A stretch of 64,000 bases of DNA from positions 48,928-112,927 of IMG/VR virus record IMGVR_UViG_2974620381_000001; one strand, 5' to 3'. The position numbers and the translations under genes are program-made. Positions within the stretch are counted from its first letter, which is position 1; every line of letters begins with the position of its first letter. Under the pieces are notes generated by a model, which made no database searches, was not told where the DNA came from, and worked only from the letters and a program-made list of their open reading frames with translations. Origin of the DNA: a virus. Its lineage: Duplodnaviria; Heunggongvirae; Uroviricota; Caudoviricetes; Demerecviridae. Positions 14,027-44,562 of this stretch are shown here, piece after piece.

Positions 14027-14841
14027 ATTTGTTTCCCCGGCATATAAGGCCTACCCTCTAGATGAGCTTCTACACGAGCAATAAAATCAGGGTCACTGAA
14101 GGCATCTACAGCCCCTTTACTCCAGTAAGGGATACCACGTTCTTCCAACTGGTACATCTCACTACGAGTCATGCCTTGATAGCCCGGTTCCGCTGCTAGG
14201 GCACTATCATAGTAGTTAACAACCATTAGCTTGGCAGCAGTACGGTTAAGAATAGGAAATAGTTCCCAGTAGAAGTTAATTACTTGGTTAGAGCAACCAA
14301 CCACAATGATCATATCTTGACTGGTAATACCATCAAAAACATTGTACATTTCTGCATACTCTGGAGCATGTTCCCCAAAGAAGATTACATTAGGTTTAAC
14401 CCATTTATAATCATCTGGGTCAATAGAATTGTACCCTACATCAATAACTCGTTTATTGCTACTATTGTAGCTGTCAGCTACAACAACCTCTTTTAAATAT
14501 CCGTGAATGTGCAGAATGTCACTATGTGAAACGCCAGCACGCTCAATAAGGTCATCAACGTTGGTAGTCAAATTTACTACCTGACCGGGGTATTGTTTAT
14601 ACCACTCACCAATACGAAGATGCGCAAGATTGGGTTCAACAGTTTTTAGCTCTTCACGTCGCTTGTTGTAAAACATATGGGTTTTATGATAAAAATTACC
14701 ACGAAAGGCATGAATATTACATACTTCTTCTAGATCATAATCATCCCACAATGCTTTACCACTAGCAGTATCAGTACGAAAGGCTCGTACACCACTTTCA
14801 ACGCTCAAACCCGCACCGCTAATAATAATTAATCTACGCAT
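14017..14841 (-). CDS. Sir2-family (sirtuin-like) NAD-dependent protein
   Basis: 274 aa; GAGLSVESGVRAFR (GAGIS-ESGIP-FR), TNVDDL (TQNID-L), HG and FFGE motifs of sirtuin catalytic core; no obvious Zn tetrad. Confidence 0.65.
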   Translation of the reverse strand: MRRLIIISGAGLSVESGVRAFRTDTASGKALWDDYDLEEVCNIHAFRGNFYHKTHMFYNKRREELKTVEPNLAHLRIGEWYKQYPGQVVNLTTNVDDLIERAGVSHSDILHIHGYLKEVVVADSYNSSNKRVIDVGYNSIDPDDYKWVKPNVIFFGEHAPEYAEMYNVFDGITSQDMIIVVGCSNQVINFYWELFPILNRTAAKLMVVNYYDSALAAEPGYQGMTRSEMYQLEERGIPYWSKGAVDAFSDPDFIARVEAHLEGRPYMPGKQICP

Positions 14842-31428: not shown

Positions 31429-31500
31429 CGGGGTGTAGTCTAAGGGAGAGGCAGGAGTCTTCTAAATTCCTTTATGCAGGTTCGAATCCTGTCACCTCGG
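31429..31500 (+). tRNA. tRNA-Arg (anticodon TCT)
   Basis: Hand-folded cloverleaf: acceptor CGGGGTG/CACCTCG, anticodon loop CTTCTAA, T-loop TTCGAAT, encoded CCA 31501-31503. Confidence 0.7.
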
Positions 31501-31537
31501 CCAATTTTATTAACTGTAACTAAAACAAAGGAAATAT

Positions 31538-32485
31538 ATGTTTGCTACTAAAAATATGAAAGAACTGACTTCTGAGCAGAAAGTAATTCGTACTATTAAA
31601 CGTTGGGGTATTGGTGCTGTAGTTGGTTTAGCAGGTTTAATCCTAGCTCTTAATTCATATACTATTGTTTCTGATGGTACGGTTAAAACCCAAACATTCC
31701 TGGGTAAAGTAGACCCTAATCCAGTATTGCCGGGTTTCCATCTTGTAAACCCGTTTGCATCTTTCGATACTTTTAGTACAAAAGATATTGCTGTAAAATT
31801 AGATAAACTTCAGGTTCCTAGTCAGGATAAATTTAAATCCACTGTTGACCTGACTGTTATGTTGCAGTTTGATGGTTCTAAGGCACCAATTAACCGTATT
31901 AACGCAGGTACTCAGGATCAGGCGCTAGACAAGTATGTAACTGAAAAATTACTGTCTACTATTCGTGAGTTTGGTAAGTCTGTACCTAAAGCACAAGATT
32001 TGTTTGATGCTAAAATTCAGGCTCAATTGCAAACTGCAATTCAACAGGAAGTTGAAGAGTATGCACGCCCATATGGTTATACAGTTAAGCAGGTATTCCT
32101 TCAGGATATTACTTTGCCACCAGTAATCATGGAACAGGTACAGAATACCAAAGTTCGTGAAGAGCAAGTTAATGCTGCGAAAGCTGAACTGGTTCGTGTT
32201 GAACAAGAAGCACAGCAGAAGGTTAAACAAGCAGAAGCAGATCGCGAAGCTCGTAATAACCAAGCTATTGCTAACGAACGTGACGCAGATGCTAAACTAT
32301 ATGCAGCTAAGAAAGAAGCTGAAGCTAACGCCGCATTGCAACGTACCATTACTCCTGAGATGATTCGCTGGAAGCAACTGGAAGTTGAAATGATTCGTGC
32401 TCAGAAATACCAAGGTGGTGTACCTCAAACTGTGGTTGGTACTGGCTACGATGGCCAAATGATCATGGATATGCGTAATAAATAA
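31538..32485 (+). CDS. SPFH/band-7 (prohibitin/HflC-like) membrane protein
   Basis: 315 aa; N-terminal TM helix, SPFH domain, long E/Q/A-rich coiled coil; tandem terminators 32508-32545 and 32562-32600. Confidence 0.65.
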   Translation: MFATKNMKELTSEQKVIRTIKRWGIGAVVGLAGLILALNSYTIVSDGTVKTQTFLGKVDPNPVLPGFHLVNPFASFDTFSTKDIAVKLDKLQVPSQDKFKSTVDLTVMLQFDGSKAPINRINAGTQDQALDKYVTEKLLSTIREFGKSVPKAQDLFDAKIQAQLQTAIQQEVEEYARPYGYTVKQVFLQDITLPPVIMEQVQNTKVREEQVNAAKAELVRVEQEAQQKVKQAEADREARNNQAIANERDADAKLYAAKKEAEANAALQRTITPEMIRWKQLEVEMIRAQKYQGGVPQTVVGTGYDGQMIMDMRNK

Positions 32486-32507
32486 TATCCGTACGTAACA
32501 TCTGAAG

Positions 32508-32600
32508 TAAGCCCTGCGTTCCCTGGAGAGCGCAGGGCTTTTCTGTATTTAAGATAAAAGAAAAGCCCCTAAGTCTTTCGACTAGGGGCTTTATTGTTTG
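32508..32600. terminator. two tandem hairpin terminators between convergent SPFH and Q-rich genes (second one bidirectional)
   Basis: GCCCTGCG...CGCAGGGC+TTTTCTG and GCCCCTAG...CTAGGGGC flanked by T-runs on both strands. Confidence 0.6.
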
Positions 32601-32809
32601 GTTCCTTAGAACCATATACTCTTGTTACAGCAACCACCCATACGGGAGGCCAATCTTGACTGAAAATCTACTCTAGGGGGCAGGATAAGAGTAGGCTTAA
32701 AGGCAAACGGATTGAACGCCGGTATTTGCGTAAACATTGCTGGAGAGCAACAACGTGCTACAGGCATTGGGCAGCACGAAACAGATTTTCTGCAACACAT
32801 AATTTCTCC

Positions 32810-33238
32810 TTAGGAGTTATTACCACCATTTTGAGCTTTTGCAACTTGGCTTTGGCAGAAGCTATTAAACTTACCCATAAGTGATACAAGCTGTTTCCCA
32901 TCCTCTGTCTTTGCGAAGTCTTCGAAAAGGGCTAGTACTGCCTGTCCTTCCGCAGAAACCTGCGGTTGTTGGGTTTGCTGCTGAACTTGCTGCTGAACTT
33001 GCTGCTGCGGCATCTGTTGCTGCATTTGTTGAGGCATTTGCGACTGCCCGCTCATTTGCTGCACCATTTGCATAGGACTCACACTCCCAGGGTTTTGCTG
33101 GAGTTGTTGCTGCATCTGTTGCGCTTCTGCTAAACGCTGTTGCAATTGTTGTAGGTAGGGGTTATCCAGACCAGGCATGGGCTGCTGGGAGCCCATGCTT
33201 TGATTAAGTCCGTTATTTACAAAACCATATTTACTCAT
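32810..33238 (-). CDS. Gln-rich low-complexity protein
   Basis: 142 aa; >35% Q; GGGGAGGA SD right after upstream stop; GC-richer codon usage than flanks. Confidence 0.5.
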   Translation of the reverse strand: MSKYGFVNNGLNQSMGSQQPMPGLDNPYLQQLQQRLAEAQQMQQQLQQNPGSVSPMQMVQQMSGQSQMPQQMQQQMPQQQVQQQVQQQTQQPQVSAEGQAVLALFEDFAKTEDGKQLVSLMGKFNSFCQSQVAKAQNGGNNS

Positions 33239-33259
33239 AATGGGCTCCTCCCCTTAATA

Positions 33260-34255
33260 TTAAGCCGGCAGTTTAGCCTGCAGACCAGCCAGAGTCTGAG
33301 TGATAGCACCAAGACTTACAGCGATTTGATTAATTACCTGACCGTTAGCACCGTTACCCGCAGCGATTGCTTCACGTAGACGACATGCATCTAACTCATC
33401 CTGAATACGAGCAGTAGTTACACCAGCGATCGCAGTCTGAAGTTCACAGCAACATTCAGCGATCTGACGTTCCAGAGAGTTCTGGTTAGCACACATCTGA
33501 GCCTGAACAGCGGCAAACTGATTATTAGTTTGTAAAGTCTGCTGGAAAGCGATCTGTGCAGAATCAAACTTATCTTGTGCACGAGCTATCTGATTAGCTG
33601 CGAAAGATTGATCAATCTGGCGAGAAAGATCGAACTGACCCTGAATAACATTGCGAGTTTCCTGGCAGATCTGATTAGACAGATTAGCACCTGTACCATA
33701 GATCGTAGTTAGTACAGACTGAGTATCACGGCTCTGGTTTTGGGATGTCTGGCTAAAACCATTGTTAACTGCGCTTAAAACAGCTCCAGTACCCTGGTTA
33801 GCTTCTGTACGAGTAGTGTTAATAGCTGCTAGAATACTAGCGGTATCTTGGTTCTGAAGTACTGCATCAACTGCGGTACCATCACCAACTACACCACGTC
33901 CACCGAATCCACCGAATCCACCGAATCCGCCTGTTAGTAGAGCACCGATTAGGATAGCTCCGAATAGTCCCATACCTTCACCACCGAAAGCACCTGCGTT
34001 TGCTGGGTAACCACCCAGTAGGCCAGGGAAGCCACTAGTGAATACGTTTACTGGTTCTTGCATTTTATGTTTTCCATATTTATGACAATGTTCATCATCA
34101 TCTTCTTCTTCATCATCGTGTTCACGATGTTTCTCTTCGTAGGCTCTGACCTTCTCCCACTTTTTCTTATCTGATTCCTCGTGACGGTGCAGTTCTGCTG
34201 CAACGCTAGCGACGGTCTCAGGACTCTTAGCTACTTCTTCTGTCATTTTTGACAC
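33260..34255 (-). CDS. low-complexity protein: acidic/His N-terminus, Gly-rich hydrophobic segment (GGFGGFGGFGG), Q/N/T-rich C-terminal region
   Basis: 331 aa; own sigma70-like promoter TTGACA-17-TAAAGT on minus strand (34308-34336), AGGAGGTG SD. Confidence 0.55.
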   Translation of the reverse strand: MSKMTEEVAKSPETVASVAAELHRHEESDKKKWEKVRAYEEKHREHDDEEEDDDEHCHKYGKHKMQEPVNVFTSGFPGLLGGYPANAGAFGGEGMGLFGAILIGALLTGGFGGFGGFGGRGVVGDGTAVDAVLQNQDTASILAAINTTRTEANQGTGAVLSAVNNGFSQTSQNQSRDTQSVLTTIYGTGANLSNQICQETRNVIQGQFDLSRQIDQSFAANQIARAQDKFDSAQIAFQQTLQTNNQFAAVQAQMCANQNSLERQIAECCCELQTAIAGVTTARIQDELDACRLREAIAAGNGANGQVINQIAVSLGAITQTLAGLQAKLPA

Positions 34256-34307
34256 CTCCTAGTATGTAGAAAATGTGTGTCTCTTTGATCACTCATCCAT
34301 AACATAT

Positions 34308-34336
34308 ACTTTATACTACTCCAGCGAAAATGTCAA
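34308..34336 (-). promoter_or_regulatory. sigma70-like promoter TTGACA-17-TAAAGT for the 331-aa low-complexity protein gene
   Basis: Hexamers on minus strand; differs from the T5 early-promoter style used elsewhere. Confidence 0.5.
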
Positions 34337-34452
34337 GGGGTCTTTAAAAATTGCCCCCGGATTTTTAGTGGGGTCACAAATTTTGGTCCTCACCACTTAT
34401 CTGCTACCCTTAAGCGCCCTATGATTTTCCTCTAAAAAGTTAAAAAATTTGA

Positions 34453-34481
34453 TTGCTTGAATGCTAAATTCTCTGTATAAT
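34453..34481 (+). promoter_or_regulatory. T5-type promoter
   Basis: TTGCTT-17-TATAAT. Confidence 0.6.
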
Positions 34482-34511
34482 ATATCTATAAATTTGAGAG
34501 AGGAACCAAAT

Positions 34512-35030
34512 ATGAATGTTGATGAGCTAACACAGCACCTCTTATCTATGGGATTTGATACTGATAAATATCATTGCTGGTTAAGTCCGGAAGGATGGCT
34601 AACAGTCCCGTTGTATGATTTCTCTGGGATGTTGAGGGGCTATCAAACTTATAATCCTTCTGCTCCAAAAGGTCATGGTAAGTGCCCCTTTGAAGCTAAA
34701 TACTTTACTTATTCTACCACCCAGTGTGTATGGGGACTAGAAACTCTCAATGGAGATGAAAAAGTAGTATTGATCGCTGAATCTGTATTTAAGGCAGTTG
34801 CGTTACATAACGCTGGGTATCCAGCCCTGGCAATGTTGGGTTCTTCTCCAGGAAAAGCGTTATTAAAGCAACTGAAATTACTACCTTTTAAATTGGTAGC
34901 TGTCGGAGATAATGATCCTGCGGGTGAAAAATTTGCTAGAAAATTAAACGGCTTTGTTTCTCCTGTAGATGTGGATGAGATGTCTACCGAAAACTTGAAA
35001 AATTTTCTTGCTATGAAGCTAAATTTCTAA
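34512..35030 (+). CDS. Toprim-domain protein (primase-like)
   Basis: 172 aa; VVLIAESVFKAVAL (E) ... LVAVGDNDPAGEKFARKL (DxD) Toprim motifs; start moved to ATG 34512 after GAGAGGAACC (track start is inside promoter). Confidence 0.5.
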   Translation: MNVDELTQHLLSMGFDTDKYHCWLSPEGWLTVPLYDFSGMLRGYQTYNPSAPKGHGKCPFEAKYFTYSTTQCVWGLETLNGDEKVVLIAESVFKAVALHNAGYPALAMLGSSPGKALLKQLKLLPFKLVAVGDNDPAGEKFARKLNGFVSPVDVDEMSTENLKNFLAMKLNF

Positions 35031-35036
35031 TATAAT
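35008..35036 (+). promoter_or_regulatory. T5-type promoter driving tRNA-Ser/tRNA-Met
   Basis: TTGCTA-17-TATAAT overlapping 3' end of the Toprim gene. Confidence 0.6.
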
Positions 35037-35051
35037 ATATCTTATAAATTC

Positions 35052-35137
35052 GGAAGAATAGCATAACGGTATTGCAGCAGATTGCTAATCTGTCGGTTTG
35101 AAATATAGCCTTGTGGGTTCGATTCCCACTTCTTCCG
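35052..35137 (+). tRNA. tRNA-Ser (anticodon GCT)
   Basis: Acceptor GGAAGAA/TTCTTCC, anticodon loop TTGCTAA, long variable arm, T-loop TTCGATT, CCA encoded. Confidence 0.7.
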
Positions 35138-35146
35138 CCAGATTTT

Positions 35147-35221
35147 GGTTCTCAAGCTCATATGGTATGAGCACCCGGCTCATAACCGGAAGGTACGTAG
35201 GTTCGAATCCTCGGGGAGCCA
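35147..35221 (+). tRNA. tRNA-Met (anticodon CAT; fMet, Met or Ile2 not distinguishable)
   Basis: Acceptor GGTTCTC/GGGAGCC (2 G-U), anticodon loop CTCATAA, T-loop TTCGAAT, CCA encoded. Confidence 0.6.
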
Positions 35222-35243
35222 CCAAATTAAATAAGGACAATTA

Positions 35244-35432
35244 ATGGAATTATTCATAGTTTCTGTTAAATTTGCACAAGATAGAGAACGTTCGGACGAG
35301 TTTAAACAAGGGTACAGACTAGTAAAGGCTACATCCGAACTCCATGCTATGGACAAAGTAGTAGACTATATGTATAATGTAGAAGATGTTTACTACGTCA
35401 ATGCTTTAGAAGCCTCAAAAGTAATTGACTAA
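35244..35432 (+). CDS. hypothetical protein
   Basis: 62-aa ORF after tRNA pair. Confidence 0.4.
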   Translation: MELFIVSVKFAQDRERSDEFKQGYRLVKATSELHAMDKVVDYMYNVEDVYYVNALEASKVID

Positions 35433-35441
35433 GGAGACTAT

Positions 35442-35627
35442 ATGTCCAAGTTTCAAGAACTCAAGCAAGAGCTAGAAGAGTGTGCCTGCCCTGAGTGTAG
35501 GGGAATTGGTGAAAGTTCTGATGCAGAAGCAGGAGATACTTTTTGCAATATCTGGGTTTGCCCAAATTGCAATGGTACAGGTATTAATCCTAACTGTGGT
35601 ATTTCTCTAGATATTGAAAGAGGATAA
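35442..35627 (+). CDS. small zinc-finger protein with DnaJ-type CxxCxGxG repeats
   Basis: 61 aa; CPECRGIG and CPNCNGTG motifs. Confidence 0.45.
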   Translation: MSKFQELKQELEECACPECRGIGESSDAEAGDTFCNIWVCPNCNGTGINPNCGISLDIERG

Positions 35628-35727
35628 TACCTGTGAAACTAAAAGATTATTATATTGGTTGGTTTGTGGGACTAGTAGTAGGATTTTCACTAGGCTATAA
35701 TATGTATCAACTAATAAACTGATTACA

Positions 35728-35801
35728 CGGGGGGTGTAATCGAATTGGCATAGGTACTGGACTTAAAATTCAGGTTTTGTGGGTTCGAATCCCACCACCC
35801 C
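35728..35801 (+). tRNA. tRNA with anticodon TAA (Leu-type anticodon) but short variable arm
   Basis: Acceptor GGGGGTG/CACCCCT, anticodon stem CTGGA/TTCAG with loop CTTAAAA, T-arm GTGGG-TTCGAAT-CCCAC, CCA encoded; D-arm poorly paired. Confidence 0.5.
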
Positions 35802-35821
35802 TACCAAATTAAGGAAATAAG

Positions 35822-35989
35822 ATGTATAGACATCCACCTCCGCCAACACGTCGTTCTAGGGAAGTCATCCTTATGGAATTGACTAAAAACTTCAAGGCAA
35901 CTCTTGAAGATAGAGATCTAGGCACGGATGAAGATATTGATTTTATTTGTAGACTATTAAAGATGAAACTGGAGAAACAACATGGCTAA
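35822..35989 (+). CDS. hypothetical small protein
   Basis: 55-aa ORF with AAGGA SD, overlaps next ORF start. Confidence 0.35.
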   Translation: MYRHPPPPTRRSREVILMELTKNFKATLEDRDLGTDEDIDFICRLLKMKLEKQHG

Positions 35990-36188
35990 TCCTGAAATTA
36001 CCGCACAACGTTTCATGCTTAAAGGCATGATTGCTGAGGCAGGTATAACTCAAGAGGTTGCAGATTTTCATAAGCAATTTCTTGACATTATAACTCTAGC
36101 TAAAGAGACTGGAGAAAAAGAACATGGAGCGGCAATTATGGCTATATCTCTTATTAGTCTAGACTTGGCTGAAGAATCTGGAGTTTAG
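35982..36188 (+). CDS. hypothetical protein
   Basis: 68-aa ORF. Confidence 0.4.
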   Translation: MANPEITAQRFMLKGMIAEAGITQEVADFHKQFLDIITLAKETGEKEHGAAIMAISLISLDLAEESGV

Positions 36189-36278
36189 CTCCTCCAAACA
36201 GAATTTTTAAAAATGTACTTGCCTTTTGCTTTAAATTTCTGATATAATAGTTATATAAATTGATGAAGGAGTTAACTA

Positions 36279-36554
36279 ATGCAAAATCGTGTTATAGCAG
36301 CTGGTATTGAAAGTGCAATCTGTAAATCCTGGGAAGGCTGGGAAGGTGAGATTGAATGGCTTTATTTCTATGATGTAGAACTTCTGCCGGAAGTTAAAGC
36401 TAAATGTGTTGAAGCTGGCATGGCTCCGGATGCAAAAGCTGATATTGATATTTCAATGTCTGAACTTAAAGGTCGTGTAGTTACCGTTAGTAATGAGGGG
36501 GAAGAAGTTTTCGAACTTCCATTCTCCTTAACTGTCACTCCTAAGTTCGACTAA
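36279..36554 (+). CDS. hypothetical protein
   Basis: 91-aa ORF after promoter ~36219-36249. Confidence 0.45.
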   Translation: MQNRVIAAGIESAICKSWEGWEGEIEWLYFYDVELLPEVKAKCVEAGMAPDAKADIDISMSELKGRVVTVSNEGEEVFELPFSLTVTPKFD

Positions 36555-36590
36555 CTAATACAGCACTGAGCAAGTTCTTTAAAATTTGAC

Positions 36591-36619
36591 TTGCTCAGTG
36601 CCTTAAAACTTGGTATAAT
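36591..36619 (+). promoter_or_regulatory. T5-type promoter driving tRNA-Tyr/Glu/Trp/Phe block
   Basis: TTGCTC-17-TATAAT. Confidence 0.55.
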
Positions 36620-36685
36620 AGTTATCTAATTTGGAAACATATTTAAAAGTGTTTAAATTAGAATATTTTGAATACTTCTAAATAT

Positions 36686-36770
36686 GGGGAAATATTCTGT
36701 AAGTGGTAGCAGAGCTGACTGTAAATCAGTTGTCATTGCGACTCGGGTGGTTCGACTCCATCTTTCCCCA
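36686..36770 (+). tRNA. tRNA-Tyr (anticodon GTA)
   Basis: Acceptor GGGGAAA/TTTCCCC, anticodon loop CTGTAAA, 15-nt variable arm, T-loop TTCGACT, CCA encoded. Confidence 0.7.
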
Positions 36771-36779
36771 CCAATTTAA

Positions 36780-36853
36780 GTCCTGTTAGACAAACTGGTA
36801 AAGTCACTACCCTTTCAAGGTAGGATTTGCGGGTTCGATCCCCGCACAGGACG
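36780..36853 (+). tRNA. tRNA-Glu (anticodon TTC)
   Basis: Acceptor GTCCTGT/ACAGGAC, anticodon stem-loop CTACC-CTTTCAA-GGTAG, T-loop TTCGATC, CCA encoded. Confidence 0.75.
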
Positions 36854-36864
36854 CCAATTCCTGC

Positions 36865-36938
36865 ATTCCTAGAGTGTTACTGGACAGCATGTCGGTCTCC
36901 AAAACCGTACGGTCTAGGTTCGAGTCCTAGTAGGTTTG
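36865..36938 (+). tRNA. tRNA-Trp (anticodon CCA), acceptor stem with two U-U mismatches
   Basis: D-stem GTGT/GCAT, anticodon loop CTCCAAA, T-arm CTAGG-TTCGAGT-CCTAG, CCA encoded; acceptor ATTCCTA/TAGGTTT pairs 5/7. Confidence 0.5.
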
Positions 36939-36948
36939 CCAAAAATTT

Positions 36949-37020
36949 GCACCTTTAGCTGAGATGGATTAGCGCTTGCCTGAAGAGCTTGAGAGGTTCG
37001 TTCGATACGAACAGGGTGCA
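36949..37020 (+). tRNA. tRNA-Phe (anticodon GAA)
   Basis: Acceptor GCACCTT/AGGGTGC, anticodon loop CTGAAGA (stem has two U-U mismatches), T-arm GTTCG-TTCGATA-CGAAC, CCA encoded. Confidence 0.55.
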
Positions 37021-37039
37021 CCAAATTGAAGGAGCTGCT

Positions 37040-37304
37040 GATGCATCCTGAAAACTTCTTTATTTACTGCGCGGATAAGTCGCTGAAACGTAGAATTAAC
37101 AAAGTCTATCATTATCGTGCTAGTCAACAGCCTTATGTATATGCTTTTGATGATGATCACATTCCACTAGAACAATTATCTTGTGATTACATGATATTGA
37201 AGAACTTTGACGAGACAAAGATCTCAAGCGTTCATAATCGACAGAATCCATTAACGTGGAAATATAAGAAGAAAAAGAAAGGCATCAAATTTTTAAAAAT
37301 GTAG
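37040..37304 (+). CDS. hypothetical protein
   Basis: 88 aa; start at ATG 37040 after AAGGAG. Confidence 0.45.
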
Positions 37305-37333
37305 TTGCTTAGTTTCCAAAAGTTCTGTATAAT
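37305..37333 (+). promoter_or_regulatory. T5-type promoter
   Basis: TTGCTT-17-TATAAT. Confidence 0.6.
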
Positions 37334-37362
37334 AATTACATAAATTGAACTGGAGAAGCAAC

Positions 37363-37587
37363 ATGACAGAACAAGAGTTGAATGAACGTAAGCTGGTAAT
37401 GCTTCGCTTACTAAATATTTTCTCTGGTATGGACGGTGGAATTGACTTTGTTCATCTACGTTCCTTCGTAGAAGAAGCTGAAGGCGAATCTATCACTAAA
37501 ATCCTTAAACACATGGGATTACTTTTAGATGCTGCTAATGTGGCTACTGAATATAAACTAGAAGATCTACCGGAGCGTGTTAAATGA
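37363..37587 (+). CDS. hypothetical protein
   Basis: 74 aa; start at ATG 37363 (MTEQEL) after CTGGAGAAG; promoter 37305-37333. Confidence 0.45.
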   Translation: MTEQELNERKLVMLRLLNIFSGMDGGIDFVHLRSFVEEAEGESITKILKHMGLLLDAANVATEYKLEDLPERVK

Positions 37588-37775
37588 AACGTTTAGTTAG
37601 ATTTAAGTGTTGTGGTTCTGAACATGTTTTCACACATCTTCGTGAATTTAAAATGTGTGATTGTGGTAAATCAGGCTATGACTTAGGAGATGGGTTCTAC
37701 ACCCGTACTCTAGGGAACTTCAATGATCTAGAATTTGAAGATCTCGAAAAACAAGATAAATCGACCGTTGGCTGA
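37584..37775 (+). CDS. Cys-rich small protein (putative zinc-binding)
   Basis: 63 aa; CCGSEH...CDCGKSG. Confidence 0.4.
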   Translation: MKRLVRFKCCGSEHVFTHLREFKMCDCGKSGYDLGDGFYTRTLGNFNDLEFEDLEKQDKSTVG

Positions 37776-37834
37776 ATGGCTTAGGCGAAGGATTGCAAAT
37801 CCTTTTTATGTGAGTTCAAATCTCATGCGGTCGT
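37762..37834 (+). tRNA. tRNA-Cys (anticodon GCA)
   Basis: Acceptor CGACCGT/GCGGTCG, anticodon stem-loop AAGGA-TTGCAAA-TCCTT, T-loop TTCAAAT, CCA encoded. Confidence 0.75.
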
Positions 37835-37840
37835 CCAATT

Positions 37841-37987
37841 TGCTGAAAGAATTGTTAAATCAATTCAGGCACGCGTAGGAACACTGTCTCCGTAATTGAA
37901 AGATGAGGCACGGTTTGGAGAGGTATGCCGCTACACGCTACGGTGCTAACTCCGTCTAGGTGAAAATCCTAGTCAGCAATATAAATT
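37841..37987 (+). ncRNA. structured tRNA-like/ncRNA element
   Basis: TTGCTGA (37841-47) complementary to TCAGCAA (37976-82) flanking a T-arm-like hairpin CTAGG-TGAAAAT-CCTAG (37959-75) with non-canonical loop. Confidence 0.25.
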
Positions 37988-37989
37988 TA

Positions 37990-38069
37990 GGGTCGTTAGC
38001 CAAGCGGTTTGGCGGTGGACTGTTAATCCATGTCGAAAGACAACGTAGGTTCGAATCCTACACGGCCCG
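37990..38069 (+). tRNA. tRNA-Asn (anticodon GTT) with extended variable arm
   Basis: Acceptor GGGTCGT/ACGGCCC, anticodon loop CTGTTAA, 13-nt variable arm, T-loop TTCGAAT, CCA encoded. Confidence 0.65.
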
Positions 38070-38174
38070 CCAAATTCTGTGTAGAGTTAAGTAAACCGGT
38101 AGCCAACCAGCTATCATTGCTGATATCGAATTCAGCCACAGATACCATTTTCATTAATAACTGAGGAAACAAGC

Positions 38175-38360
38175 ATGTCCAAGAATGTAATTGCGCAGCT
38201 AGAAGTTCATCGTGATAGCACTATCAACAATATTGAAGTTGAGAAGAAATACATCGAAGAACTTAAACATGATATACTAGTAAGTCTTAATCGTCTTAAT
38301 GTACGAAAAGAGTTTCTTAAGGAACTTAATGCAGCTATTGAAAAACTCAAAGCTGAGTAA
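38175..38360 (+). CDS. hypothetical coiled-coil protein
   Basis: 61-aa ORF. Confidence 0.4.
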   Translation: MSKNVIAQLEVHRDSTINNIEVEKKYIEELKHDILVSLNRLNVRKEFLKELNAAIEKLKAE

Positions 38361-38369
38361 ATGAATTAT

Positions 38370-38443
38370 GCGACCGGGGCTGGCTTGGTAATGGTACTCC
38401 CCTGTCACGGGAGAGAATGTGGGTTCGAATCCCATCGGTCGCG
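38370..38443 (+). tRNA. tRNA-Asp (anticodon GTC)
   Basis: Acceptor GCGACCG/CGGTCGC, anticodon stem-loop CTCCC-CTGTCAC-GGGAG, T-loop TTCGAAT, CCA encoded. Confidence 0.75.
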
Positions 38444-38629
38444 CCAAACAATTAGGGTACAGAGTAGGTAAAGGTAGGGGAGGTCACATATGGTCTTTAG
38501 ACGGATATGCTCTGGGGCTTCCGACTAGAAAGCTGCTTTACCGCGCCCTAGCCACAATAATTAAGCAAATCCCTCTTTTTCACAGGAGAGGGTATTTGAA
38601 GAAATTCTTACGAGAGATTCTTCAAATAT

Positions 38630-38702
38630 ACATCCATAGCTCAATGGTTAGAGCTACCGCCTCTTAAGCGGAGGGTTCTAGGTTCAAGTCCTAGTGGGTG
38701 TA
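38630..38702 (+). tRNA. tRNA-Lys (anticodon CTT)
   Basis: Acceptor ACATCCA/TGGGTGT, D-stem GCTC/GAGC, anticodon loop CTCTTAA, T-loop TTCAAGT, CCA encoded. Confidence 0.65.
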
Positions 38703-38731
38703 CCAAACTAAACTAGTACGAGAAATACGCT

Positions 38732-39079
38732 ATGATTAATGCTAAAGAAGAGTTGTTACTTGCCCTAAAGAATACTAAGTCTGAAGTTAAGTGTATTAAG
38801 ATAGAATTCGGTTATTATGGGGACAAAGAAGTCTGGGTATTACCAGTAGGTTATACAGAAAAAGATATTGAAGATTTTCTAAATAATCTAGACTTTAAAT
38901 ATGATTCTGGTTTCGGTGGACAATTGCTTTATGGTAACGTATGGTTTACTGATGGAACTTGGTTAGAACGTGGTGAATATGATGGTTCTGAATGGTGGGA
39001 ATATAAGACTACACCAGCAATCCCTGAGGAATGCCGAACAATTAATGGTGAAGTAGATAATACTTTACGGTTAAACTAA
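38732..39079 (+). CDS. hypothetical protein
   Basis: 115-aa ORF. Confidence 0.45.
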   Translation: MINAKEELLLALKNTKSEVKCIKIEFGYYGDKEVWVLPVGYTEKDIEDFLNNLDFKYDSGFGGQLLYGNVWFTDGTWLERGEYDGSEWWEYKTTPAIPEECRTINGEVDNTLRLN

Positions 39080-39201
39080 TAAAATTTCAGTGCAGAACAC
39101 GGAGCTAGCAATTCGGAAGTGCTGACTCATGATAAGCTGCCTATGTACTTGCGAAGCGGTCGTGTCCAAGACTCGGACTCTTGCACTGAAAACAATCAAA
39201 C

Positions 39202-39322
39202 ATTCTAGCGTGGTTGATGGGGAAACCAGCTTGGCGAGGGCAGAAGCTCGTTCGATTCGAGTGAAAGAATGGTTCTCGTAAGTCCGCACAAGTGATAACA
39301 GGTTCGAGTCCTGTCTAGAATG
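39202..39322 (+). ncRNA. tRNA-like element with ~48-nt insertion (121 nt between matching acceptor strands)
   Basis: 5' ATTCTAG (39202-08) is exact complement of 3' CTAGAAT (39315-21) flanking T-arm ACAGG-TTCGAGT-CCTGT (39298-39314); D-arm TGGT/ACCA present; contains a second T-arm-like hairpin GCTCG-TTCGATT-CGAGT at 39246-62. Confidence 0.3.
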
Positions 39323-39471
39323 ACACTATAAAGTTTACTTATTATGTAGGTTCCGGTAGACCGGCGGGTCTATTCTGGCATTTAAGAGAGGTCTCGCAAG
39401 CCTCTTTGTCAGCCGTGGGGTTCATAGCCTCCAGGTGGCCTACACAATAAGTAAATTTATTAAAAATTCAT

Positions 39472-39500
39472 TTGCTATTCTGCTTAATTCTCTGTATAAT
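39472..39500 (+). promoter_or_regulatory. T5-type promoter
   Basis: TTGCTA-17-TATAAT. Confidence 0.6.
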
Positions 39501-39532
39501 ATATCTTATAAAGTGAAGAGAAGGAAAGCTAA

Positions 39533-39730
39533 ATGAAGAAAGTTTTATTACTATCTGTATTCCTACTTACTGGTTGTTTTAAATTTGACTCAACCATTAA
39601 TAAAGAGTATGAATTTGCTAAAAATTTCTGTGGCGGGGAGAGTAATATAAAGAATTTCTACATATATAGTACAATTCCTAGTACCGTTTATTGTGTAGAC
39701 GGACGAATTATTAATATTCCTCCACAATAA
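39533..39730 (+). CDS. small lipoprotein
   Basis: 65 aa; signal peptide with lipobox LLTGC; promoter 39472-39500. Confidence 0.45.
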   Translation: MKKVLLLSVFLLTGCFKFDSTINKEYEFAKNFCGGESNIKNFYIYSTIPSTVYCVDGRIINIPPQ

Positions 39731-39739
39731 AAGAATTAA

Positions 39740-39812
39740 CAGTGCGTAGCGCAGTTGGTAGCGTGGGAGCTTTGGATGCTTCGGGTCGCAGGTTCGAGTC
39801 CTGCCGCACTGA
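39740..39812 (+). tRNA. tRNA-Pro (anticodon TGG)
   Basis: Acceptor CAGTGCG/CGCACTG, anticodon loop TTTGGAT, T-loop TTCGAGT, CCA encoded. Confidence 0.75.
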
Positions 39813-39821
39813 CCAAACAAT

Positions 39822-39896
39822 TGCGGGTTAGATCTCTGGTAGAGATCACTAGTCTCATAAGCTAGAAAGAGGTAGGTTCGATTCCTGCACCCGCTT
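39822..39896 (+). tRNA. tRNA with anticodon CAT (Met or Ile2)
   Basis: D-arm GATC-TCTGGTAGA-GATC, anticodon stem-loop CTAGT-CTCATAA-GCTAG, T-loop TTCGATT, CCA encoded; terminal acceptor pair mismatched. Confidence 0.6.
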
Positions 39897-39919
39897 CCAT
39901 TTTAATAGAGGATTTCGAA

Positions 39920-40087
39920 ATGAAAGTATTTCGATTAGTAGTAAGTGACAAACGTTTAGGTAAGAATACATCAAAATCCTTACTTGCTCATTACGGTAAA
40001 AATTGGGATGAAGTAATGGTAGAGTTTAGTACTAATCACCCCTACTTAAAAGTCCACTCTATTAAAGAAGTATACAATGGTTACTAA
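39920..40087 (+). CDS. hypothetical small protein
   Basis: 55-aa ORF with GAGGA SD. Confidence 0.35.
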   Translation: MKVFRLVVSDKRLGKNTSKSLLAHYGKNWDEVMVEFSTNHPYLKVHSIKEVYNGY

Positions 40088-40088
40088 T

Positions 40089-40164
40089 AGATCGCTAGCT
40101 CAATAGGTTTAGTAGCATCCGACTTTTAATCGGAAGGTTCTGGGTTCGAGTCCCAGGCGATCTA
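40089..40164 (+). tRNA. tRNA-Lys (anticodon TTT)
   Basis: Acceptor AGATCGC/GCGATCT, anticodon stem-loop TCCGA-CTTTTAA-TCGGA, T-loop TTCGAGT, CCA encoded. Confidence 0.7.
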
Positions 40165-40185
40165 CCAATTTCAAGAAAAATGCAG

Positions 40186-40215
40186 TTGCTTAATGCTTAA
40201 TTTCTTGTTATAATA
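40186..40215 (+). promoter_or_regulatory. T5-type promoter upstream of HNH-endonuclease leader
   Basis: TTGCTT-18-TATAAT. Confidence 0.55.
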
Positions 40216-40459
40216 TTTATATAAATTGATGAGAAGAGATCCTCATCATAGTTCACTAAGGTATTAGCTCGACCTAGGACTGGCTGCCAAAAAGCACGAT
40301 CCCTACGATTCGGGAGAAGTTCTAGATTAGTCCACTAGATTCAGCGGCAACTGAATAGTGTATCGGGTTTGCGAGATGACGCGGTTCCTTCCGCTTGAAG
40401 CGAAGGTGCTGTAGTTACGCCGAGCTAATAGCCTTAGTAAACTTACAGGGGTTAACGCA

Positions 40460-40846
40460 GTGTGTACAAAAACATGTAGAGCCTGTGGGAATGAATATCC
40501 GTTAACAACCGAATATTTTTATTCGAATGGATTTACTCCTAATGGCACAAAGAAGTGGAAGCCAACATGTAAAGCATGTGAAAAAGCTGAACGAGTAGCT
40601 GGACATGAAGAATTAATTAAAGAAGTATTTCCTGTATTAGAATGTAGTATTTGTGGATATAATAGGTGTAAACAAGCCCTAGATTTCCACCATACTAATC
40701 CAGAAGAAAAGGAATACTCCATTGCAAGGTTTAGAACTTCTCGTAGAAACAGAGAAGTAGTAATAGCAGAACTTAAAAAGTGCGTACTATTATGCTCTAA
40801 CTGCCATAGAGAAGTACATGCTGGATTAATAAATTTGGGCGAATAG
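40460..40846 (+). CDS. HNH endonuclease
   Basis: 128 aa, GTG start; Cys-rich N-terminus and HNH motif DFHHTNPEEK...NCHREVH. Confidence 0.65.
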   Translation: MCTKTCRACGNEYPLTTEYFYSNGFTPNGTKKWKPTCKACEKAERVAGHEELIKEVFPVLECSICGYNRCKQALDFHHTNPEEKEYSIARFRTSRRNREVVIAELKKCVLLCSNCHREVHAGLINLGE

Positions 40847-40908
40847 TGTCAGCGGGAGCACACCAGACTTGCAATCTGGTAGGGAGGGTTCGAGTCCCTC
40901 TTTGTCCA
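40837..40908 (+). tRNA. tRNA-Ala (anticodon TGC)
   Basis: Acceptor GGGCGAA/TTTGTCC (G-U pairs), anticodon stem-loop CCAGA-CTTGCAA-TCTGG, T-loop TTCGAGT, CCA encoded. Confidence 0.7.
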
Positions 40909-40916
40909 CCAAACAT

Positions 40917-40990
40917 GCGTGATTGATGGAATTGGCATACATACCGTCCTTAGAAGTCGGGTTTTGAGGGTTCGAATCCCTTGTCACGCA
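40917..40990 (+). tRNA. tRNA with anticodon TAG (Leu-type anticodon) but short variable arm
   Basis: Acceptor GCGTGAT/GTCACGC, anticodon loop CTTAGAA (stem 4/5), T-loop TTCGAAT, CCA encoded. Confidence 0.5.
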
Positions 40991-40995
40991 CCAAA

Positions 40996-41069
40996 TTTGA
41001 TGGTCAGAGTAAATTAAACCTACTATCTCGGTTGAGCTGTTTTAATGGGTTCGAATCCCAGCGAGGCGT
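40996..41069 (+). tRNA. tRNA-like element, not foldable (possible pseudogene)
   Basis: Canonical T-arm TGGG-TTCGAAT-CCCA at 41046-41060 but no matching acceptor strand or anticodon arm; no CCA. Confidence 0.3.
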
Positions 41070-41105
41070 AACTGCCTGGCGTGATAGAGGCATCATCTTA
41101 TTATT

Positions 41106-41193
41106 GGAAGAGCAAATCGAATTGGCGACGAAAACCGCTTGGAAAGTGGCTGACTGGTAAAACGGCTTGAGAGTTCAAATCTCTCCTCTTCCG
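41106..41193 (+). tRNA. tRNA-Ser (anticodon GGA)
   Basis: Acceptor GGAAGAG/CTCTTCC, 3-bp D-stem, anticodon loop TTGGAAA, long variable arm, T-loop TTCAAAT, CCA encoded. Confidence 0.6.
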
Positions 41194-41203
41194 CCAAACA
41201 AAT

Positions 41204-41290
41204 GGAAGGTAGGGCGTAGTGGTACGCAACTAGTCTTGAAAACTAGCCCGCTGTAGTGATACGGTGATGGTTCGACTCCATTACCTTCCT
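41204..41290 (+). tRNA. tRNA-Ser (anticodon TGA)
   Basis: Acceptor GGAAGGT/ACCTTCC, D-stem GCG/CGC, anticodon stem-loop CTAGT-CTTGAAA-ACTAG, 19-nt variable arm, T-loop TTCGACT, CCA encoded. Confidence 0.7.
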
Positions 41291-41312
41291 CCAATTAACT
41301 ATAAGGAATCAT

Positions 41313-41486
41313 TATGAGCAAAACAGTTACTGTAACAATGAAGGACGGTAAAAAATTTAAAGCATGCCTTCATGAAACAGATAAGGGATGGATGGCTTAT
41401 TTGCCACACCTAGATTCCACTGGGTATGGAATGACCCAACGTGAAGCTATTGTTGATGCTTTAAATGAGGCTTCTGCTGGTTTATA
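41313..41486 (+). CDS. hypothetical small protein
   Basis: 57-aa ORF, AAGGAA SD. Confidence 0.35.
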
Positions 41487-41855
41487 AAAATTCTTGAAGT
41501 ATGCCGGAATCGGTAGACGGGGCTGCCTAAAAGGTTTATAGGGAACATCCACTCCCTGCAATATACCTCATAAAGCGGCTGAGATAAATGGTCTATCTCG
41601 TGAAGGTTCAAGTCCTTCTGCTTCTTGATATATCTATGGCTCAAAGTGTAACGGTGCTATTTGATGCTCTTAGTAAGACTTTCCCGACATGCGTTCGGGA
41701 GTAAGCTGCTAAGACTAGAGTAGAAGAGTTTCTGAGAGCCGCCACAATTGAAAATTCGTACTCGTCTTGAGCTGCGTGCAACAGGAGATAACTTGATTAG
41801 TATTCTAGAACATGCTAATTGAGGATGGTTTCGCTAACCCTGCGAGTTTTCAATT

Positions 41856-41929
41856 GTGGCTATATCATAATTGGTTAATGATCCTGATTGTGAATCAGGC
41901 CTATGTGGATTCGAATTCCACTAGCCACC
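41856..41929 (+). tRNA. tRNA-His (anticodon GTG)
   Basis: Acceptor GTGGCTA/TAGCCAC, D-stem TCAT/ATGA, anticodon stem-loop CCTGA-TTGTGAA-TCAGG, T-loop TTCGAAT, CCA encoded. Confidence 0.75.
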
Positions 41930-41957
41930 CCAGATTAACTTAAATAGGAAATAAAAT

Positions 41958-42155
41958 ATGGCTGAGTTCTGCAAACAATGCTCCATTGATATGTGGGGCA
42001 GAGATACTGGTGACTTATCTGGTTTGATTACAGAAGCTGAGGTCAAAGAAGGTTATGGTGCAGTTGTGGTTTGCGAAGGATGCGGAGTTATTCGAGTAGA
42101 TCATGAAGGCAAACGTTTAGAAGAACCGGAAAACTTAGGAGAAACAAATGAGTAA
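41958..42155 (+). CDS. hypothetical Cys-containing protein
   Basis: 65 aa; CKQC...CEGCG. Confidence 0.4.
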   Translation: MAEFCKQCSIDMWGRDTGDLSGLITEAEVKEGYGAVVVCEGCGVIRVDHEGKRLEEPENLGETNE

Positions 42156-42384
42156 TGCTTTAATTAGTGAAATTATGTTAACACGTCTTGCAGAACTGCA
42201 AACTCTTCGAGATGAATCTCAGAATAACTTATCCTACCATAAACAGATGGTAGATACTCTTACTACTCGTATTGAAACTTACGAGCGTGATATTGCAGCA
42301 TTACAAGCTCTTTTCTCTGTATCAGCACCAGATACACTAGAACAGCCTGTCGTATCTCAGCCGGTAGAAACAGCATCTAGTTAA
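42148..42384 (+). CDS. hypothetical coiled-coil protein
   Basis: 78-aa ORF overlapping previous stop. Confidence 0.4.
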   Translation: MSNALISEIMLTRLAELQTLRDESQNNLSYHKQMVDTLTTRIETYERDIAALQALFSVSAPDTLEQPVVSQPVETASS

Positions 42385-42393
42385 TAGCATTCT

Positions 42394-42466
42394 TGGGGTG
42401 TAGATCAATTGGCAGATCGTCGGCCTCTGACTCCGAAGGTTCCTGGTTCGATCCCAGGCACTCCAG
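42394..42466 (+). tRNA. tRNA-Gln (anticodon CTG)
   Basis: Acceptor TGGGGTG/CACTCCA, D-stem GATC/GATC, anticodon loop CTCTGAC, T-loop TTCGATC, CCA encoded. Confidence 0.6.
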
Positions 42467-42475
42467 CCAAACAAT

Positions 42476-42548
42476 TGGAGAGTAGTGTAACGGTTAGCAC
42501 AACGGCCTTTGACTCCGTTAATGGTAGGTTCGATTCCTCCTTCTCCAG
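42476..42548 (+). tRNA. tRNA-Gln (anticodon TTG)
   Basis: Acceptor TGGAGAG/TTCTCCA, D-stem GTGT/GCAC, anticodon loop CTTTGAC, T-loop TTCGATT, CCA encoded. Confidence 0.6.
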
Positions 42549-42558
42549 CCAAATAATA

Positions 42559-42632
42559 AGCGGTTAAGCACACGGGTTGTGTCGCAGGCCTTCCAAGCCT
42601 CGCTGAGTAGGGTTCGATTCCCTCTAGCCGCT
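42559..42632 (+). tRNA. tRNA-Gly (anticodon TCC)
   Basis: Acceptor GCGGTTA/TAGCCGC, anticodon loop CTTCCAA, T-loop TTCGATT, CCA encoded. Confidence 0.6.
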
Positions 42633-42651
42633 CCAACTTTAAGGAAACATT

Positions 42652-42903
42652 ATGCACGTTTTTGAGTTTCGTAATAAAAGTACCGATAAACGAGTTATTG
42701 TTATTGGAGAAACATACCGAGCATACGAACAAACTGACGGCTCTGTTATCCTGAATGATGAGAAAGGAGGTTTTAGCTTTTATCCAGAAGAACCTTATGA
42801 AGAGTTTCGAAAACAATTTAACCTAGACTGGAGAAAGCATTTAAACACTGTTGCTTCATCTGTAGTATTGCCAACTACCAGTACTGTACTCTCTAATGGC
42901 TGA
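42652..42903 (+). CDS. hypothetical protein
   Basis: 83-aa ORF. Confidence 0.4.
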   Translation: MHVFEFRNKSTDKRVIVIGETYRAYEQTDGSVILNDEKGGFSFYPEEPYEEFRKQFNLDWRKHLNTVASSVVLPTTSTVLSNG

Positions 42904-43060
42904 CAACCTAAAAGTCAAGATTGATAAACAAAAGAAACGTGTAGAAGTAGAGATTGGTGAAGAACGTGTAGCCTTCACCTTTGAATTTCTTCAGCAGTTG
43001 GCAATGGCAGTTATGACTGATAAGTCTCCTGTTATTGAAAAAGAAATCCCGTTAAAATAA
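42896..43060 (+). CDS. hypothetical small protein
   Basis: 54-aa ORF; ATG overlaps previous stop (ATGGCTGA). Confidence 0.35.
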   Translation: MADNLKVKIDKQKKRVEVEIGEERVAFTFEFLQQLAMAVMTDKSPVIEKEIPLK

Positions 43061-43070
43061 CGGGATCATC

Positions 43071-43141
43071 GCTCCTAAAGCATTGCTGGCGATGCAGTTG
43101 CCTTGTAAGCATCTGAACCGGGTTCGATTCCTGGTGGGAGC
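43071..43141 (+). tRNA. tRNA-Thr (anticodon TGT)
   Basis: Acceptor GCTCCTA/TGGGAGC, D-stem GCAT/ATGC, anticodon loop CTTGTAA, T-loop TTCGATT, CCA encoded. Confidence 0.7.
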
Positions 43142-43160
43142 ACCAAATTTAAAAATTCAT

Positions 43161-43189
43161 TTGCCTTCTCTCTTATTTCTTGTTATAAT
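43161..43189 (+). promoter_or_regulatory. T5-type promoter
   Basis: TTGCCT-17-TATAAT. Confidence 0.55.
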
Positions 43190-43219
43190 ATCTAATTAAA
43201 TTAATGAGAGGGAAACCAA

Positions 43220-43510
43220 ATGAAACGTTATCTTTCTATTGTATTCCAAACTGGTGGCCAAAGATATACCTATGAATTTCCATCTTCTTGGAAAATCAAA
43301 GAAGGTGATCAAGTAGTTGTGCTAACTCCGCGTGAGGGATATAAAGTAGTAACGGTTAAACAAGTATTTCCAAAAGATCATGAGCCTGCTAGAGGCATCC
43401 GATATAAGATGATTCATGGTGTGGTTCGTCAAGTACCACGAACTGAGGTAGAAGTAGGTAAGAATGGAGAAACTAAATTCCATTATACTTCTTACCTAGA
43501 TAGTGTGTGA
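43220..43510 (+). CDS. hypothetical protein
   Basis: 96 aa; promoter 43161-43189. Confidence 0.45.
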   Translation: MKRYLSIVFQTGGQRYTYEFPSSWKIKEGDQVVVLTPREGYKVVTVKQVFPKDHEPARGIRYKMIHGVVRQVPRTEVEVGKNGETKFHYTSYLDSV

Positions 43511-43525
43511 TGTAAATATTTTAAT

Positions 43526-43599
43526 GCTTCGGTAGCTTAGCGATCTAAAGCACTCGGCTGATAACCGAGAGATCGGGGGTTTAAATCCCTCCCGGAGTA
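43526..43599 (+). tRNA. tRNA-Ile (anticodon GAT)
   Basis: Acceptor GCTTCGG/CCGGAGT, D-stem GCTT/AAGC, anticodon stem-loop CTCGG-CTGATAA-CCGAG, T-loop TTTAAAT, CCA encoded. Confidence 0.7.
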
Positions 43600-43698
43600 C
43601 CAAATTTAGGAATTAAGACTATGCGTCCAGGAAAGTTTAAAAAAGCTAATTGGTCTAAAGAGTATAAAGAATACTTACTTAGTCTAGTAAAATATAGC

Positions 43699-43770
43699 AG
43701 TTAGTTGGCAGAGTGGTTATGCACCTCCTTCATACGGAGCGACTACAGTGGTTCAAATCCACTACTAACT
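43699..43770 (+). tRNA. tRNA with anticodon CAT (Met or Ile2), third CAT copy
   Basis: Acceptor AGTTAGT/ACTAACT, anticodon loop TTCATAC, T-loop TTCAAAT, CCA encoded. Confidence 0.6.
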
Positions 43771-43797
43771 ACCAAATTCTAACATCGGGGAGATCTA

Positions 43798-44166
43798 ATG
43801 AAAGCATATCAAAATCTTAAATCTGGAGTAATTAACCTTGTTCATGAAAATCAGATTATTCAGCTATACTCCGACAACGGTGAACTTAAACAGAAAGTTC
43901 TAGTTGAAGATCTAGAAGGTATTACACCACAATTCGATCCCGAAGCCTTCCGTGAAGTTAAGGTGGAAGTCGCCCCTCAAATCGAAGGTGGTCAGCACCT
44001 AAATGTCAATGTATTAAGCCGTGATCAGCTTTTGGATGCGCAGAAACATCCTGAAAAATATCCTCAGTTGACCATCCGTGTCTCTGGCTACGCTGTTCGA
44101 TTTAATGCACTGACTCGTGAACAACAGAACGACGTTATTAGTCGTACATTTACTCAGGCGATGTAA
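43798..44166 (+). CDS. autonomous glycyl-radical cofactor (GrcA/YfiD-like spare part)
   Basis: 122 aa; C-terminal [11 protein letters not shown]...[29 protein letters not shown] matches YfiD/GrcA and PFL C-terminal glycyl-radical domain. Confidence 0.7.
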
Positions 44167-44247
44167 TGGGGTTTGGATACGATTTCTCCCAGCTACGCAA
44201 GGTAGTCGAGCAAACTCCGTTTATCTCCCAAGTTTTAGGAGAAATGT

Positions 44248-44562
44248 GTGGATCGAGCATTAAGACGCCATCACCGGCAACGTGTGAAGAACAACCGCAA
44301 GAAGTATTGGACAGTCTTTCCACATGAAGAAAGCCCTAAGCGGTTAGGTATTATCACTACTACTCCTTGCATCTGTTCTTGCTGGATGTGTGGGAACCCT
44401 CGCAAATATTATAAGAATAGTAAAGCAGGTATGAAAACCTCGGAGATCAGAAAAATGGAAGCAATGATTATGGGCATCTCAAATGATGAATTTGATGGCT
44501 TTGTAGGATTCGGAGAAGGAATCAGCTCAGGCTGTTTCGAAGATGAACGCCCCGATCTGTAA
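44248..44562 (+). CDS. hypothetical Cys-rich protein
   Basis: 104 aa; CICSCWMCGNP. Confidence 0.4.
   Translation: MDRALRRHHRQRVKNNRKKYWTVFPHEESPKRLGIITTTPCICSCWMCGNPRKYYKNSKAGMKTSEIRKMEAMIMGISNDEFDGFVGFGEGISSGCFEDERPDL

Follow-up and report, generated by a model that had tools for sequence, protein, structure and literature searches.

A T5-like phage carries a GrcA/YfiD-type glycyl-radical protein that probably serves host pyruvate formate-lyase

The stretch of 64,000 nucleotides analysed here (the window) matches the T5-like Phage NBSal005 (MN994504.1; Tequintavirus, Demerecviridae) at 100% identity, a window position being the MN994504.1 position minus 48,927. The initial annotation had placed a GrcA/YfiD-like ORF at 43798-44166, and this holds exactly: the frame runs on the + strand from an ATG at 43798 to a TAA at 44164-44166 and encodes a product of 122 aa and 13.9 kDa, and in the same interval the longest ORF on the opposite strand reaches 36 aa. 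The ORF listing and the Pfam, PHROG and PDB profile matches together describe a gene for an autonomous glycyl-radical cofactor of the GrcA/YfiD type. A Shine-Dalgarno-like GGGGAG (43787-43792, + strand) can be read from the sequence 5 nt before the ATG, and at the equivalent place a ribosome-binding site is annotated in phage Seabear. The GrcA-like protein is 100% identical to the NBSal005 CDS QIN93191.1, which the record names 'pyruvate formate-lyase'.

The gene follows a cluster of 23 tRNA genes detected by ARAGORN (31429-43774, all on the + strand), the last of which, tRNA-Met (CAT; 43699-43774), ends 23 nt upstream. The first description of the location as tRNA-distal therefore needs amending, as the gene sits at the distal edge of the cluster and is not remote from the tRNAs. 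Small function-unassigned ORFs are interspersed in the cluster, and several of its tRNAs appear as 'tRNA-OTHER' in the GenBank record. In a promoter/terminator scan, the sole + strand promoter-like site upstream of the GrcA-like gene was found at 43161-43189, ahead of a tRNA-Ile (43526-43602, + strand, ARAGORN), and no + strand terminator-like site was found between it and the gene. The scan thus suggests that the gene is probably co-transcribed with tRNA-Ile and tRNA-Met, a tentative operon structure, since the counts of the scan were not above the shuffled expectation (12 vs 9.4). Because it follows a phage tRNA cluster, the gene is presumably free of the regulation that host grcA has on its own chromosome. 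Downstream, a 53-aa ORF (window 44166-44327, + strand; PHROG 31464) begins with an ATG that overlaps the GrcA-like stop (TAATG), and a 104-aa ORF with a GTG start and a CxCxCxxC cluster (window 44248-44562, + strand; PHROG 4499) overlaps it by 80 nt in a different frame. The two are annotated inconsistently among T5-like genomes, and among six genomes the substitutions in their overlap are silent in the 104-aa frame, which points to this frame as the coding one there.

The initial annotation assigned the C-terminal 60 residues to the glycyl-radical domain of YfiD and pyruvate formate-lyase (PFL), and the profile searches bear this out. The only Pfam domain in the protein is Gly_radical (residues 62-103, E 3.7e-18, 66 bits against a cutoff of 22), and the best match in the PDB is E. 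coli YfiD/GrcA (6owr, E 1.4e-30), with residues 698-759 of PFL (1h16) matched at E 5e-27 and glycyl-radical enzymes other than YfiD/PFL at E 1e-12 or weaker. The match of the C-terminal ~60 residues to the PFL-type domain is far beyond chance. Identity to PflB, TdcE and GrcA and the Foldseek matches place the domain at residues 61-122 (43978-44163, + strand), equivalent to PflB 698-759. Over the last 62 residues, 49 are identical in PflB (79%), 51 in TdcE (82%), 48 in GrcA (77%) and 49 in Vs.6 of phage RB14. The radical glycine, on which the initial assignment depended, is present: sequence and alignment place the Gly loop RVSGYAV at residues 94-100 (44077-44097, + strand), and in a four-way alignment with E. 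coli GrcA, PflB and T4-type Vs.6 its G97 (RVSG97YAVRFN; codon GGC at 44086-44088) shares a column with GrcA G102 and PflB G734 (codon 735). The columns of the loop are invariant in an alignment of 46 homologs, and the protein keeps all 40 columns of the domain that do not vary among 20 diverse homologs from phages and bacteria. No Cys occurs near the loop in the sequence of the protein. An AlphaFold model (mean pLDDT 70.8) predicts a helix at residues 75-83, then a beta-hairpin (92-95/98-101) whose tip is formed by G97, and a further helix at 107-117, and the top Foldseek matches of the model in the PDB were YfiD 6owr (3e-5) and then PFL 2pfl (7.5e-4, rmsd 2.7 A over 50 columns).

Judged by its sequence, the product is a small stand-alone protein with a PFL-type glycyl-radical domain, of the GrcA/YfiD spare-part type. 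Its best NCBIfam match is GrcA (TIGR04365, E 3.5e-35), over residues 50-122 only and at 121 bits, below the equivalog cutoff of 170 bits, a shortfall due to the lineage-specific N-terminal half. In control searches E. coli GrcA scored 234 bits and the RB14 vs.6 product, the ortholog of the biochemically validated T4 protein Y06I, 155.7 bits; since this T4-group ortholog is also below the cutoff, which excludes phage versions generally, the low score is no argument against function. The phage family phrog_1209 is matched over its full length (E 8e-48; residues 1-122 cover positions 1-121 of the 121 in the profile). Of TIGR01255, the profile of the full-length PFL enzyme of ~760 aa, only positions 683-744 are matched, with 85.9 bits against a cutoff of 994. 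Several GenBank records of T5-like phages name the gene 'autonomous glycyl radical cofactor', and the same domain is also misleadingly labelled 'ribonucleotide reductase subunit', 'acetyltransferase' or 'pyruvate formate-lyase' (among the variants, Salmonella phage SE20, H105), names that the present assignment corrects.

The N-terminal half (residues 1-60; 43798-43977, + strand) is lineage-specific according to hhalign and BLASTP. The part common to it and the other phage GrcAs is limited to the initial MKAYQ and residues ~31-60, the latter aligning with the N-halves of jumbo and T4-like phages at a probability of 41% in hhalign, and residues 50-60 are the only part that hhalign aligns with bacterial GrcA; the N-halves of the other phages match those of bacterial GrcA at 92%. 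BLASTP of this half gave no match to the N-half of T4-type Vs.6, and against GrcA it matched only REVxVEVxP. AlphaFold predicts four beta strands here with moderate confidence (pLDDT ~75). The N-half of YfiD is disordered by NMR, and YfiD needs its N-terminal region in order to bind cleaved PFL measurably and to be activated efficiently (PMC8683613). By analogy with residues 1-60 of YfiD, docking on cleaved PFL and assistance in activation are presumed to be the tasks of residues 1-60 of the phage protein. As the N-terminal ~45 residues are barely alignable and are predicted to be beta-structured instead of disordered, the docking behaviour or the partner of the T5-type protein could differ from those of GrcA and T4 vs.6, and as a naturally occurring variant in this region the protein could help to probe what the N-terminus of YfiD does.

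A tblastn search found the GrcA-like protein in 1585 phage records, comprising ~430 T5-like ones at an amino acid identity of at least 90% and ~1000 T4-like and others at <60%. In six T5-like genomes (dS up to ~0.7) the gene as a whole had a dN/dS of 0.04-0.17, with 0.05-0.15 for the N-half and 0-0.17 for the C-half, low values that indicate maintenance of both halves by selection. The record name 'pyruvate formate-lyase' might suggest a different origin, namely a captured and non-functional 3'-end fragment of host pflB or tdcE, and the best nucleotide match in E. coli genomes is indeed the 3' end of pflB (77% over nt 184-369). The ORF is intact, however, and preceded by the Shine-Dalgarno motif in every T5-like genome examined, the PHROG family is matched over its full length, and the strong purifying selection includes the non-PFL N-half, so that dN/dS refutes a pseudogene or fragment and we regard this origin as extremely unlikely. 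A recent capture from the host was rejected as well: the DNA of the C-domain is about equidistant from grcA, pflB and tdcE (70-75% nucleotide identity to each), and the GC content of the gene (41.3%) has ameliorated to the level of the phage (window, 39.1%) and away from the ~48-49% of E. coli grcA and pflB. The phage-like GC content and the equal distance to the host genes argue for an old resident of phage genomes.

Exchange with host genes may have occurred elsewhere in the family. The C-terminal 186 nt of RB14 vs.6 (L003:3175-3360) are 95.7% identical (178/186; third positions 58/62) to those of E. coli K-12 grcA (L004:3070-3255), despite an N-half of the phage type, and T4-group vs.6 thus looks like the product of a recent recombination of a T-even phage with host grcA; the T5-type gene carries no grcA recombination signal of this kind. 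In one bacterial GrcA (P0107, a cluster of 900 member sequences) the N-half is of the E. coli type, but the C-terminal tail, LTKEQQQDVITRTFTQSM, is identical to PflB and not to GrcA, which suggests gene conversion between grcA and pflB in some enterobacteria. The architecture varies too: Providencia phage PSTCR5 (L014:1168-1689) has a 173-aa version with another and longer N-terminus, and the 67-aa annotation in Citrobacter phage YZU-L1 (P0033) covers the C-domain only. A match to the glycyl-radical domain at 2087-2252 (73.8% nucleotide identity) of OR849994.1, a 3457-bp record labelled 'Staphylococcus phage SA 1298 Kay' (H128), points to an unexpected host, and this contig is probably mis-assigned or a contaminant.

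For the function of such proteins, YfiD and T4 Y06I are the guides, being the only two spare parts validated biochemically (Andorfer et al. 2021, PMC8683613). According to Wagner et al. 2001, as related in PMC8683613, PFL-AE radicalises YfiD and Y06I, and the activated proteins form a complex with oxygen-cleaved PFL, whose activity is thereby restored; the radical is carried by the C-half of YfiD, residues 61-127 (PMC8683613). A strain with full-length PflB G734A also makes formate thanks to GrcA, that is, radical-less PflB is rescued in vivo (Sawers' group, PMC12338860). The T5-type protein is 52% identical to Y06I over its full length, and given the biochemical validation of the latter, the repair of host PFL that the initial annotation proposed as one of two possible targets is a well-founded reading. 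We consider it probable that the protein is a phage spare part for host pyruvate formate-lyase, in which PflA radicalises G97 and the C-domain replaces a lost or radical-less radical domain of PFL.

The activating enzyme would come from the host. When E. coli PflA and NrdG were used as tblastn queries against all 121,040 bp of the genome, no credible homolog was returned (best E 2.7), and a CX3CX2C scan of the same sequence found no plausible activase, hitting only the 104-aa ORF just downstream of the GrcA-like gene and an ORF of the HNH type (CSNCH motif). A phage-encoded activase was rejected on these grounds, and since no phage homolog of PflA or NrdG was found, the radical must be installed by a host enzyme. 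During infection of an enterobacterium, the host's radical-SAM activase PflA would abstract a hydrogen from Gly97 in RVSGYAV, and residues 61-122 would then insert into host PflB, probably also into its isozyme TdcE. The recipient PflB would be one whose own C-terminal radical domain had been lost through cleavage by oxygen at Gly734, or one that is radical-less; the glycyl radical would be handed to Cys419 of PflB and pyruvate would again be converted into acetyl-CoA and formate. The N-terminal half would aid docking and activation, and existing host PFL would be kept working under microaerobic or fluctuating-oxygen conditions. T5 breaks down the DNA of its host and halts host gene expression. 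The host could then not replace damaged PFL or GrcA, which would make a spare part brought by the phage useful. What the analysis itself shows is homology, an intact motif, conservation under purifying selection and a phage genome in which no activase was found; the benefit to the phage, the activation by PflA and the binding to PFL we infer.

The same contacts could in principle be used against the host, the protein sequestering PflA or filling PFL unproductively so that host fermentation is shut down. The divergent N-half could alter the binding behaviour, and a decoy for PflA would likewise have to retain the RVSGYAV loop. Against this reading, all 40 of the 40 invariant columns of the radical domain are kept, among them positions outside the loop where the domain packs into PFL, and the dN/dS of the C-domain is near 0; moreover, the homologous T4 protein restores PFL and does not inhibit it, as far as the account in PMC8683613 goes. 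Inhibition is thus very unlikely, and a productive spare part for PFL remains the preferred reading.

The second target named in the initial annotation, the phage's own NrdD, did not stand up. The window does encode a class III ribonucleotide reductase (RNR), NrdD (15703-17577, - strand; Pfam NRDD, 4.4e-172), which is likewise a glycyl-radical enzyme and whose oxygen-cleaved glycyl-radical tail a spare part would replace, and both GrcA-like and NrdD genes occur in those groups of T4-like, T5-like and jumbo phages that were sampled. In the phage NrdD, however, the loop reads RRVCGYLG and follows a stretch rich in Cys, CGKC...CPIC; the GrcA-like protein lacks both, its loop being RVSGYAV and not the RVCGYLG with CxxC...CxxC of a class III RNR tail, the substrate of NrdG. 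BLASTP found no similarity between the two phage proteins (E 5.7), and the 79-82% identity of the domain to PflB and TdcE implies that its contact surface is that of PFL. E. coli PFL-AE is reported to generate the glycyl radical on the heptapeptide RVSGYAV and not on the class III RNR loop RVCGYLG (PMC13450708), formate lyases are the only enzymes with known spare parts according to a 2026 review, and the two genes lie 26 kb apart on opposite strands. NrdD as the direct target was rejected on the loop sequence, the absent similarity and the reported specificity of the activase, and repair of this enzyme is highly improbable. The strand of nrdD also carries, ~0.9 kb downstream of it, an ORF of 274 aa annotated in the record as SIR2-family NAD-dependent deacetylase-like (window 14017-14841, - strand), with three small function-unassigned ORFs in between.

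An indirect link between the two proteins is possible, with PFL as the source of formate. In the anaerobic RNR of E. coli, formate serves as the hydrogen donor, as credited to Mulliez 1995 in the reference list of PMC13450708, and the phage NrdD is 48-49% identical to NrdD of the T4 group. The biochemistry would be that of the spare part, with another selective reason: a high flux through PFL and TdcE would supply formate, the reductant of the class III RNR of the E. coli/T4 type, together with acetyl-CoA and ATP for anaerobic phage DNA synthesis, the connection to NrdD being metabolic and not physical. The service of GrcA to uncleaved, radical-less PflB (PMC12338860) fits such a boost, and the groups of GrcA-carrying phages (T5-like, T4-like, V5-like, 121Q-type jumbo and Vibrio/Aeromonas phages) also occur among the 2909 NrdD-positive phage records, a co-occurrence seen in sampled rows. 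These 2909 records outnumber the 1585 with a GrcA-like gene, however, from which it follows that NrdD does not require a GrcA-like gene. A metabolic booster of this kind seems to us unlikely as the main reason for keeping the gene.

The phage encodes NrdD without an NrdG activase anywhere in the 121-kb genome MN994504.1, and in T4-like phages nrdG lies next to nrdD. Like the GrcA-like protein, the T5-type NrdD would have to depend on a host radical-SAM activase. The T5-type protein may also be imagined as something other than a plain GrcA copy, with a selected and possibly folded N-module for another docking mode or partner (e.g., TdcE or intact radical-less PFL) and with its value in coupling host PFL to the activase-less phage NrdD via formate, a two-gene strategy for anaerobic dNTP supply that we offer as a speculation with some small chance of being right. 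Repair of host PFL remains the reading that we prefer.

The kind of protein described here is already known: the work on T4 Y06I dates from 2001, and T4 vs.6, which is the gene of the protein called Y06I, is annotated as GrcA in NC_000866. With orthologs in hundreds of public T5-like genomes, the finding carries little weight as a discovery. The literature searched yielded no paper devoted to the T5-type protein, and its description adds a second major group of coliphages that keeps a spare part for an oxygen-sensitive host enzyme and relies on the host for its activation.

Compared with PFL itself, the T5-type protein has the C-domain (PflB residues 698-759 and its TdcE counterpart) with an identical loop, and this accounts for its naming in GenBank as 'pyruvate formate-lyase / 2-ketobutyrate formate-lyase', but it lacks the catalytic barrel of ~700 residues with Cys418/Cys419 and is no enzyme on its own. 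With E. coli GrcA (YfiD; 6OWR; TIGR04365) it shares the stand-alone format of ~14 kDa, 74% identity over residues 51-122, the aligned radical glycine and the fold of the C-domain, whereas the N-terminal ~45 residues show no clear relation by BLAST and hhalign, and the N-half disordered in GrcA is predicted, with moderate confidence, to be beta-structured in the T5-type protein. A phage parallel is T4 Vs.6/Y06I (T4p117), the function of which was validated in vitro and which at 120 aa is nearly as long as the T5-type protein (122 aa), starts with the same MKAYQ and has the same glycyl-radical domain and RVSGYAV loop; both phages are lytic on enterobacteria, and both also carry NrdD. The two differ in genomic context, T4 vs.6 being located between regB and denV and the T5-type gene at the end of a tRNA cluster, and in the activase, as T4 has its own nrdG and the T5-like phage does not. 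They also differ in the history of the C-domain, which in the T4 group is nearly that of host grcA (60/62 aa and 95.7% nucleotide identity in the RB14 ortholog), whereas the T5-type domain represents an older, ameliorated lineage with signature residues (S74, Q77, Q82, N111 and S115) common to the copies of jumbo phages.
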